Source: a virus (Duplodnaviria > Caudoviricetes). Taken from it: a DNA stretch of 55,362 nt. The notes below the pieces were generated by a model, which was given only the letters and a program-made list of their open reading frames with translations, searched no databases and was not told where the DNA came from. The DNA lies in the IMG/VR virus record IMGVR_UViG_3300006734_000009, positions 1 through 55,362 of that record. The stretch is one strand, 5' to 3'. The translations under genes and the position numbers were made by a program. Within the stretch, counting starts at the first letter, position 1. The number at the start of each line of letters is the position of its first letter. Shown here piece by piece: positions 7,111 through 8,973 of the stretch.

Positions 7111-7745
7111 AATATTTCCTCCAGTTTTTCACTATATTTTAGCACGGTTTGTCTGCTAATATAGAAAGCCCGTGCGACCTTCCTTAGCGATAGATTAGTG
7201 GCCCGATAAACACAAGCCGACAATATGTTCATGTTTATGTCAATTTTTTCTTCCACGAGTTCTACCAAACTCTCAATTTCGCTACGCTCGTTTTTAGTAT
7301 ATCCTAGATTTTTTAATAGCGGCTTCCATTCAGCCGGTCGGTATATTTCAGTCGGGGCCAACCTATCAAGAAGAGTCTTGACGGTCTTACTCCGAACACC
7401 CATAAACTTACAATACTCCCTTAACGGGGAAACCATGTTGTTGTTGCTCATGTATATGTGTAGGGCCAACACTGAAAGTGTAGCGGTTGTGTATCTACTG
7501 GTCCTATACAAGTTAATATAACTACTGCGGTATATTCTCTTGACTGACTCAATATCACTTACATCAAACTCTTTACACAACATAATTAGGTCTATCAAGT
7601 CCCTGTCAACCTCTCCCCTGCTGAGGGGGACAGAATACATTCTAGGGACTACGAAACTATTACAATTAGAACAGTTGCTCGCCTTTGAGCCACTTAATCG
7701 CAATTTCGGGACTGATAGCGATAAGCCGCAAACTAAACACTCCAT
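7107..7745 (-). CDS. Transcription factor B (TFB/TFIIB)-like protein
   Basis: N-terminal Zn ribbon CLVC..CSNC, two cyclin-like repeats (LSVLALHIY..PLREYCKFMGV; LSACVY..SLRKVARAFYISRQTV HTH). Confidence 0.75.
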   Translation of the reverse strand: MECLVCGLSLSVPKLRLSGSKASNCSNCNSFVVPRMYSVPLSRGEVDRDLIDLIMLCKEFDVSDIESVKRIYRSSYINLYRTSRYTTATLSVLALHIYMSNNNMVSPLREYCKFMGVRSKTVKTLLDRLAPTEIYRPAEWKPLLKNLGYTKNERSEIESLVELVEEKIDINMNILSACVYRATNLSLRKVARAFYISRQTVLKYSEKLEEIL

Positions 7746-8973
7746 CCTTCAATACCTCCTTATTCCTTGGCTTGTTAAACTCTCGCTCGTAGCCTCGTAG
7801 GGTGGACACTGTGTCTATGTTATTTTTATCGTTAATAAAAACCATTACCCTTGAGGCAATTTGGTCGCCCAAACTAACATTGGTGTCCATTTGGTCAATA
7901 CAAATACTTCCCCGGTTAAAGTAAATATTGATGCCGTCGGTTAAAATATTATTACGAATACCTAAATCCCTGTATAGTTTATCAAAGTCTGCTTCTTTTT
8001 CTTGAAACTTATAAATCCAAGATTCCGGTTCATCGGGAACAACAGAGTGAGCCAAATTGTAAGTTTGAACATTTTGTCTACCCAATACATGTTGACCGTC
8101 TTCATATGTATGTGAGATAACCCAAGATGTTCCCGGCCCACGAACATATAACCCTCTGTTTGAGCGAGTCCCAAATGAGTCTAATTGTTCAAAGGGATAA
8201 ACATTAGGGAAGGTTTTATGTAATTTCTCAACCAATTCCATGCTTCTTTTGGTAACAAGGGTGGACGATTTATTTTGAATCATAAATGCCTCAATGACCT
8301 TCTCTTGGCTAGCGGTAAGATACTCGCCTGTGCAAAGGTGATATAGTTCTTGATAGGGAATAGCCGAGTATTTGTTAGACCCACCATTACAAGCACGAAT
8401 AAACATAATTGCTTGACGGTGCTTCATCTCAACCCAAATATCTGTGTAGAATTGAATGGCAACCGAGTCCGAACTAATTTTTTCAATATCAAGCAAGGTT
8501 TCCTCAACATCTCCCCCCTCGGTAATAAACTTATACTTAATTTTATTAATCACTGCATCATTAATCTCAATAGGAGTTTCTAAAAAGTCCAAAATATCGT
8601 CATCAATTTCTTCACTGTCAGCATACTTATTCATCTTTAGAATAATCAAGGTAAGTAATTTACATAGATGTTTAAAACTAATCTTTTCCCCGTTTATAAA
8701 ATAAGTCCTGCCGTTCTTAGCCATTGTAAGTCTTTTAGTCTCACTGAGATTAGTTACGATACACAAAGGAGATTCGTCATTCAAGAAAGCCTTAATAGTT
8801 TTCTTGAAGATAACTTCATGTAGACTAGGGTTAGGCGTCTGATTAACATTTCTTCTCCCGTAATATCTACTAGTTCTTTGAACGGTGTGTCCGTTAGCAT
8901 TGATAAAAACAATTCTATCCGTAGGTTGTTGTCGGTTATCTGCGGTGCGGAACTGAACAGTTGTCTTAATCAT
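7666..8973 (-). CDS. Protein with C-terminal putative E2 (UBC)-like Cys domain
   Basis: RGSICIDQM followed by helix LGDQIASRVMVFIND resembles E2 NGSICLDIL...LLxDP; two genes upstream of E1. Confidence 0.5.
   Translation of the reverse strand: MIKTTVQFRTADNRQQPTDRIVFINANGHTVQRTSRYYGRRNVNQTPNPSLHEVIFKKTIKAFLNDESPLCIVTNLSETKRLTMAKNGRTYFINGEKISFKHLCKLLTLIILKMNKYADSEEIDDDILDFLETPIEINDAVINKIKYKFITEGGDVEETLLDIEKISSDSVAIQFYTDIWVEMKHRQAIMFIRACNGGSNKYSAIPYQELYHLCTGEYLTASQEKVIEAFMIQNKSSTLVTKRSMELVEKLHKTFPNVYPFEQLDSFGTRSNRGLYVRGPGTSWVISHTYEDGQHVLGRQNVQTYNLAHSVVPDEPESWIYKFQEKEADFDKLYRDLGIRNNILTDGINIYFNRGSICIDQMDTNVSLGDQIASRVMVFINDKNNIDTVSTLRGYEREFNKPRNKEVLKDGVFSLRLIAISPEIAIKWLKGEQLF

Follow-up and report, generated by a model that had tools for sequence, protein, structure and literature searches.

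In prokaryotes, conjugation by ubiquitin-like proteins (Ubls) has recently been seen mainly as antiviral defence, as in the CBASS Cap2, Bil and Bub systems. The operons of class 6d were reportedly studied later as the Bil antiphage system. As set out in the passages that describe the class, these are prokaryotic Ubl-JAB-E1-E2 operons with an E2-like protein that does not have the classical histidine (Iyer, Burroughs and Aravind 2006; PMC1779556). Here we analyse a candidate counterpart that is encoded by a virus. The window, by which we mean the whole 55,362-nucleotide stretch analysed (IMG/VR virus record IMGVR_UViG_3300006734_000009, positions 1 to 55,362), encodes an E2-like protein, E2L, whose C-terminal domain is predicted to have a UBC-like topology, together with a candidate Ubl, a minimal E1-like adenylating enzyme and a JAMM metallopeptidase. 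To judge from those passages, class 6d is the closest arrangement described, since both sets contain a Ubl with a C-terminal glycine, a JAB/JAMM protein, an E1-like protein as well as an E2-like protein without the HPN motif. The class 6d genes, as presented there, form bacterial cellular or defence operons with small stand-alone E2s, whereas here the genes are viral and distributed over several kilobases, and N-terminal domains are joined to the E2-like domain in one protein. E2L also escapes the E2 sequence models that were tried (Pfam and PADLOC).

Other described systems share some of these parts. Cap2 of CBASS, which is accompanied by the JAB protein Cap3, is an E2-E1 fusion, and what it conjugates is a CD-NTase and not a small Ubl. 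The Bub pathways are diverged bacterial ubiquitination pathways that, as outlined in the preprint of Ye et al. (PMC11601596), proceed via oxyester intermediates; their enzymes are described there as lacking catalytic cysteines and are accompanied by a serine protease, in contrast to the invariant Cys and the JAMM peptidase found here. The archaeal SAMP/UbaA/HvJAMM1 system and the Caldiarchaeum Ub-E1-E2-RING-Rpn11 operon have in common with our locus a small beta-grasp modifier ending in GG (a candidate in our case), a ThiF-type E1, a JAMM protein and an archaeal setting (a probable one in our case). To our knowledge, sampylation needs no E2. The Caldiarchaeum E2 is a recognisable UBC protein, whereas the E2-like domain described here is not recognisable by sequence. 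Large E2s with their own substrate-binding regions, such as UBE2O, offer an analogy only, as E2L is without similarity to them outside the UBC-like core. What differs here is the (probably archaeal) virus setting, the N-terminal fusion of about 230 residues, the two-helix insert and the fact that our searches found no sequence similarity to known E2 families.

The E2L gene occupies 7666..8979 on the minus strand and encodes 437 amino acids (aa) from a GTG or 435 aa from an ATG at 8973. The public gene call (P0001, 435 aa) is consistent with the ATG, which overlaps the TGA of an upstream 82-aa gene as ATGA. An earlier note on this DNA, made from the sequence alone, had placed a divergent E2 at 7666-8973; the open reading frame (ORF) is real and the ATG matches the end coordinate, but the gene lies on the minus strand, and a plus-strand reading is full of stops. 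All of the strings that it quoted are present in the minus-strand translation: in the 437-aa numbering used throughout, TKRSMELVEKL lies at 243-253, GLYVRG at 276-281, SWVIS at 285-289, NVQTY at 303-307, IYFN at 352-355, RGSICIDQM at 356-364 (7888-7914, minus strand) and LGDQIASRVMVFIND at 370-384. The candidate catalytic nucleophile, Cys360, is inside RGSICIDQM (codon at 7900-7902, minus strand). That the gene stands next to an E1 proved approximately right, as a 212-aa gene (7107-7745) separates E2L from the ThiF-type E1. Parts of the E2L gene, among them 7528-8164, 7630-8035 and 8261-8682, are covered by contigs from four marine metatranscriptome runs that are at least 99% identical to the window. 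These RNA-library contigs are compatible with expression of E2L; they neither reveal the strand nor exclude carried-over DNA.

The genomic context is the stronger evidence for reading E2L as an E2. The genes for the E1, the JAMM protein, the Ubl, the 212-aa protein and E2L are all on the same strand; together they extend over 8.5 kb and are interspersed with other genes. The E1-like adenylating enzyme (6553..7110, minus strand) is a minimal member of the ThiF family (PF00899, E=1.8e-18; score 67 bits, cut-off 28.1) whose 185 aa make up an adenylation domain only. Its invariant columns comprise GxGGIGS, DN..R and the Cys of an FSCQ motif. A profile of this protein matched ThiF-type proteins, MccB, Cap2, UBA5, UBA3, MoeB and Uba4 in the PDB, and the match to the SAMP-activating E1 of NCBIfam (E=2.1e-8) was far under that model's cut-off. 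The JAMM/MPN+ metallopeptidase (180 aa; 5057..5599, minus strand) was identified by its motif and by profile matches. Its motif H-T-H-x7-S-x2-D (H121, H123, S131 and D134), with the upstream E81, is invariant in 7/7 sequences, and 16 of the 19 rows matched by its profile are JAMM enzymes (AMSH-LP best at E=0.0014, with STAMBP, Sst2 and Rpn11-like proteins), while the match to the Pfam Prok-JAB family (E=0.0075) falls under the cut-off. The peptidase likely trims the residues that follow GG in the Ubl, acts in deconjugation, or does both.

The candidate Ubl (68 aa; 13336..13542, minus strand), found by tblastn and as an ORF, ends in ...IVGG-CY. The GG is invariant in 6/6 orthologues compared and the tails vary (GGCY, GGQN, GGRF), a combination that would be the signature of a peptidase-trimmed Ubl precursor. 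No sequence match to the Ubl was obtained in the PDB. A structure prediction of the complex of E1 (two copies), Ubl (residues 1-66) and the E2L domain gave a score of 0.00 against a mark of 0.32, which speaks neither for nor against binding.

The same set of genes recurs in other viruses. Seven viral loci with E2L were found to have the same gene order, even where E2L is only 22-24% identical. A larger set was anchored on the E1: IMG/VR gave 539 pattern matches, a relative is encoded by 384 of them, and the best 80 of these 384 were taken. A full-length E2L is encoded upstream of the E1 and on the same strand in 58/58 loci in which the flank on that side exceeds 3.7 kb. JAMM lies downstream of the E1 in all 77 loci with more than 2.7 kb on that side, with the HxHx7SxxD motif in 77/77, and the Ubl lies upstream of E2L wherever more than 6.6 kb was available (35/35). 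The spacing ranges from 496 to 2465 nt between E2L and E1, from -27 to 1571 nt between E1 and JAMM, and from 515 to 6277 nt between Ubl and E2L. Nearly all Ubl ORFs in these loci (49/51) end in GG followed by 0-4 residues. The Cys motif is kept in each of the 64 full-length E2L copies, which form 50 clusters at 90% identity and have pairwise identities down to 20%. Full 10-kb flanks are available for 30 loci; each of the genes for E1, E2L, Ubl and JAMM occurs in 30/30 of these, and ribonucleotide reductase (RNR), GroEL and a TFB-like gene are present in 23, 25 and 20, respectively.

The predicted structure of E2L was examined with AlphaFold2. The full-length model (pLDDT, the predicted local distance difference test, 84.9; pTM, the predicted template modelling score, 0.48) looks like three separate domains. 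When the C-terminal domain (residues 235-437; 7669..8277, minus strand) was modelled alone with a 116-sequence alignment, the values were 94.8 and 0.89. The elements of this domain are a helix (237-256), four strands (260-266, 272-280, 285-290 and 305-312), a pair of helices (318-326 and 332-338) and a hairpin (345-358), followed by the loop that holds Cys360, helices 370-382 and 392-400, and finally a strand and a helix. In both models, Cys360 comes directly after strand 352-358 and 10 residues before helix 370-382. The order of helix, strands, Cys and helix that had been guessed from the letters is thus borne out by both models; the two helices inserted between the sheet and the Cys, and the extra C-terminal strand and helix, had not been foreseen. 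The order of elements in the domain model (alpha1, beta1-4, the insert, the Cys loop, alpha2, alpha3) is the UBC order. Canonical E2s (UQ_con, PF00179; Ubc9, UbcH5 and Ubc13) share it, together with a single invariant Cys before a long helix and the sequence I-C-x-D. Compared with them, E2L has no HPN, an insert of about 35 residues before the Cys, additional elements at the C-terminus and an N-terminal extension of about 230 aa.

Structure searches led to the same superfamily. With 48,161 PDB representatives, 31 of the best 50 rows were titled E2, UBC, UEV or RWD; about ten more we take to be UBC, UEV or RWD chains as well, which would bring the total to about 40 of 50. The bacterial proteins Cap2 and CdnG-E2 are among these best 50 rows. 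In a second structure comparison the first 34 rows listed were E2 entries without exception, and the alignments took in practically the entire E2; residues 0-158 of Ubc9 (1u9b), for example, were matched to residues 4-174 of the domain model, with 115 residues aligned. The best structural matches to E2s have root-mean-square deviations of 4-5 A. A search with the full-length model brought residues 241-407 to the same UBC superfamily and residues 1-136 to a mixed list. In the models, the C-terminal domain of E2L therefore appears to have a real UBC-like topology with large deviations. A look-alike search of the ESM Atlas with the domain gave no usable match.

E2L belongs to a sizeable family. 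A word-index search returned 31 homologues at E<=1e-3, which are unnamed and 388-454 aa long, and a hidden Markov model (HMM) search of 1.84 billion representatives (50% identity) found 145 at E<=1e-3, of which 110 were at <=1e-10 and 33 at <=1e-30. Since there are 31 close and 145 representative homologues, E2L is not a chance ORF. Most of the relatives from the HMM search have 370-480 aa, and some proteins of 130-225 aa match the C-terminal part only; the latter may be either stand-alone forms of E2 size or fragments. Foldseek against BFVD returned three unnamed viral proteins of 416-452 aa at E<=1e-3 (20-30% identity) and no others; these three probably belong to the E2L family. To measure conservation by column, 172 collected proteins were aligned to the family HMM, and 144 of them cover the Cys360 column. 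Conservation of the Cys in homologues, which the earlier note had named as a check, turned out to be complete (144/144). Q373 and R377 are likewise found in 144/144, D372 and D384 in 143/144, T393 in 141/142, D362 in 136/144 and Q302 in 123/129. C197 (in FIRAC) was rejected as a second catalytic Cys, being invariant in close relatives yet present in only 37/135 members. The protein can be divided into a variable N-terminal part (1-80), a conserved middle (81-234) and the UBC-like C-terminal domain. Mean identity to the E2L of the window is 0.36 for residues 1-117, 0.58 for residues 118-234, 0.61 for the core of the C-terminal domain and 0.24 for the insert (313-350), and the final ~17 residues are among the least conserved.

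Several results weigh against reading E2L as an E2. Foldseek against the PDB, the comparison that had been proposed for testing the fold, gave nothing at E<=1e-3 with either model, and the E2 chains that it did return for the domain stood at ranks 5, 33, 35 and 46 with E of about 1-2. The structural scores are in the range that the tool calibrates as unreliable and alone do not prove a relationship. At the sequence level, no Pfam family was matched by E2L or by 116 family members, the UQ_con HMM found nothing in the window, PADLOC (including its Cap2 E1-E2 models) had no match for E2L, and a PDB profile search with E2L gave 0 matches. Alignment by hhalign to four bacterial Cap2-type E2 domains (fetched via Prok-E2_B) gave a probability of 0.75% and to 30 bacterial UQ_con proteins one of 0.33%, the thinness of these target profiles (4 and 30 sequences) making this weak negative evidence. 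The canonical HPN motif upstream of the Cys is missing from E2L, as had been noticed at the outset, and is equally missing from the family consensus; some accepted prokaryotic E2-like families lack it as well (PMC1779556). The co-occurrence, too, can be read in more than one way. The E1-anchored loci (55-81% identity to one E1) are probably a single viral lineage with collinear genomes, and since they were picked by similarity to a single E1, the co-occurrence may in part stem from a core genome common to them and not from a functional link; two families of unassigned function, of 82 and 133 aa, are likewise present in 30/30 of the full-flank loci. Finally, Ubl, E1 and JAMM as a trio are just as characteristic of sulfur-carrier pathways. 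Further searches with E2L gave no match in PHROGs or NCBIfam, none in 50,697 phage records (megablast and tblastn), and only chance-level helicase matches (E of at least 0.13) with phmmer against the PDB. The local motif G-S/P-I-C-I-D does resemble NGSICLDIL, the E2 active-site motif quoted in the earlier note. Membership of E2L in the UBC superfamily is not established, and the protein stands as one that looks and is placed like an E2.

Our preferred reading is that E2L represents a new E2-like family, unrecognisable by sequence, that is joined to N-terminal domains and belongs to a Ubl conjugation module encoded by the virus; we regard its chances of being correct as about even. The E2 interpretation is partly supported: the family is new and widespread, its predicted fold is UBC-like, its Cys is invariant, and it is embedded in a conserved Ubl-E1-JAMM set of an abundant group of marine viruses. 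The claim that E2L is the conjugating enzyme thus gains from the predicted fold, the invariant Cys and the gene context, and loses from the lack of a sequence link to E2s and the absence of HPN, so that the E2 function, as far as the models go, is plausible but unproven. If it is an E2, the pathway might run as follows, each step being inferred from genes, motifs, conservation, co-occurrence and the predicted fold. The 68-aa Ubl would be made with its GG-CY end, and the JAMM peptidase would remove the tail. The minimal ThiF-type E1 would then adenylate the exposed Gly, and possibly also form a thioester on the Cys of its FSCQ motif. Next, the Ubl would be handed to Cys360 of the E2-like domain as a thioester. 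The two N-terminal domains of E2L could bind the target or dock the E1, such that no separate E3 would be needed, and JAMM may also reverse the mark.

The domain might instead be UBC-like and yet not be a thioester-forming E2: it could be a binding or adaptor module of the UEV/RWD kind, an E3-like or E1-docking factor, or another cysteine enzyme such as a Ubl-specific peptidase. We consider this unlikely. The invariance of the Cys in a G-P/S-I-C-I-D-N/Q loop, among proteins down to 20% identity, argues for catalysis, and a dedicated peptidase is already present in the form of JAMM. Moreover, no other E2 candidate was found with UQ_con on the window or with Pfam on 31 window ORFs, the other ORFs being unscanned.

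The main rival pathway is one of sulfur transfer, in which a Ubl-thiocarboxylate of the ThiS/MoaD/CysO/QbsE type would be produced by way of the Ubl, E1 and JAMM, and E2L would use or relay the sulfur via Cys360, for example in making a thio-modified nucleoside or a cofactor. The small E1 of ThiF/MoeB type, the weak ThiS match (E=0.071) of the Ubl copy in the related locus L005 and the virus's own tRNAs would all suit such a pathway. A GG followed by two residues that are cut off by JAMM is also the practice of the sulfur carriers QbsE/QbsD and CysO/Mec+. In addition, the strongly conserved polar residues besides the Cys (Q302, D362, D372, Q373, R377, D384 and T393) go beyond what a plain E2 needs. 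Against this, the 185-aa E1 consists of its adenylation domain alone, no rhodanese or other sulfur-transfer Pfam family was found among the 31 window ORFs scanned, and the fold matches of the Cys-containing domain are to the UBC superfamily and not to known thiocarboxylate-using enzymes. On balance, we think a sulfur pathway distinctly improbable.

It seems very improbable that E2L is unrelated to the Ubl genes, as a core gene of a conserved early or replication block with a coincidental UBC-like topology: the equal universality of the 82-aa and 133-aa families and the unreliable range of the structural scores would fit, but three separate structure searches converge on the one superfamily that is tied to E1, Ubl and JAMM, and E2L always lies on the same strand between Ubl and E1 though the intervening genes change.

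The window is a viral contig with a CheckV completeness estimate of 57%, and it encodes terminase and portal genes. It further encodes a GroEL-type chaperonin (1-1596, minus strand, open at the window edge; TIGR02348 at E=2.2e-95, under the cut-off), an adenosylcobalamin (B12)-dependent RNR of the RTPR type (9626-11503, minus strand), a pyrimidine-dimer DNA glycosylase (14844-15344, minus strand), an ATP-dependent DNA ligase (45954-48032, plus strand) and, side by side, tRNA-Arg(TCT) and tRNA-Leu(TAA) (11876-12042, minus strand). In the part of the published description that deals with their gene content, group B magroviruses carry RNR, GroEL and tRNA-Leu plus tRNA-Arg (Philosof et al. 2017; PMC5434244). 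Because RNR, GroEL, tRNA-Arg and tRNA-Leu are all present, the window looks like the genome of a group-B magrovirus, an assignment that rests on gene content compared with the published description. Its probable host is an archaeon of Marine Group II (Poseidoniales). Among 185,579 species genomes, the E2L family gave two matches only, L009 and L010, which are contigs of metagenome-assembled genomes labelled Altibacter and Maricaulis. L009 is 99.97% identical to the viral locus L003, and both contigs carry viral neighbour genes; they are probably viral contigs mis-binned into bacterial genomes. Since both bear the viral gene block, the two bacterial names were dismissed as a clue to the host.

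Little has been written about such genes in archaeal viruses. A MoeB/ThiF gene is described as common in archaeal viruses and linked to ubiquitination in the relevant section of the RaFAH paper (PMC8276007), and in the literature searched, as far as its accessible text goes, this ThiF gene is the only one of archaeal viruses to have drawn comment. A literature search that joined "magrovirus" and "ubiquitin" found no paper. The main text of the magrovirus papers examined contains no ubiquitin, ThiF or JAB/JAMM, although their supplementary tables, which were outside its scope, may list these genes; the sections of Philosof et al. (PMC5434244) that were consulted make no mention of ubiquitin, adenylyltransferase or JAB. 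Should the E2-like reading be true, conjugation machinery would stand on the side of the virus, among the most abundant archaeal virus groups of the surface ocean. It would represent a compact four-gene Ubl system that is directly testable, a new branch of the UBC fold and a handle on the reprogramming of hosts by viruses of uncultivated archaea, and it would bear on the diversification of E2s and E3s before eukaryotes. A bolder version, which we hold to be possible but doubtful, is that magroviruses possess a complete Ubl conjugation machine consisting of a Ubl precursor, a minimal E1, JAMM and an E2/E3 hybrid with its own target-recognition domains. The rapidly changing N-terminus and insert of E2L would then keep pace with targets in the host or the virus, among which may be the transcription machinery, and this would be the first such protein-tagging system of an archaeal virus and a UBC lineage beyond all sequence models. 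The transcription machinery is suggested as a possible target because a TFB-like or zinc-ribbon gene usually lies between E2L and E1.

In the window, that position is held by the 212-aa protein (7107..7745, minus strand), which has a CxxC...CxxC ribbon in its N-terminal part and, by weak matches, a helix-turn-helix in its C-terminal part. The first 80 nt of its gene (7666-7745) overlap the end of E2L in another frame, and both the overlap and the Cys pattern are kept in the orthologues of loci L002 and L003. In the more distant loci L005, L006 and L008, a protein of about 300 aa is found at this position. The L005 copy (4667-5572 of that locus), the only one scanned, matches a TFIIB zinc ribbon (E=1.5e-5) and the TFB model PRK00423 (E=6.3e-5), both under the curated cut-offs. 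BLASTP of the 212-aa protein against this TFB-like protein was not significant (E=0.12), so homology between the two is not shown. The TFB-like gene of the relatives is a hint of archaeal viruses, and transcription factors may be linked to the module. As a separate observation, identity between the window and L010 is 97% for RNR, 89% for JAMM, 71% for E1, 48% for the 212-aa protein and 42% for E2L; in comparisons of the window with L010 and L002, E2L and the protein encoded just downstream of it change far more rapidly than the surrounding enzymes.

The 82-aa protein is encoded directly upstream of E2L (8970..9218, minus strand) and is linked to it by the stop/start overlap described above, while in the full-flank loci its distance is variable; it had no Pfam or PHROG match. 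The other universal family, of 133 aa, is represented in the window by a 134-aa protein (3156-3560, minus strand). Downstream of the JAMM gene lies a gene for a 141-aa protein with the pattern CxxC-x4-CxxC (4701-5126, minus strand), whose family is kept in the seven related loci with sequence extending to this point and in 26/30 full-flank loci. The 141-aa protein could be a zinc-binding accessory of the module. A 72-aa protein (3557-3775, minus strand) with the pattern CxxC...H...H ends in MGG-V, and it may be a second GG-ended substrate of JAMM and E1. Its orthologues in six other loci end in GG and one residue (MGGV, LGGA or LGGV), and in L005, L006 and L008 the 72-aa gene is located directly before the JAMM gene.

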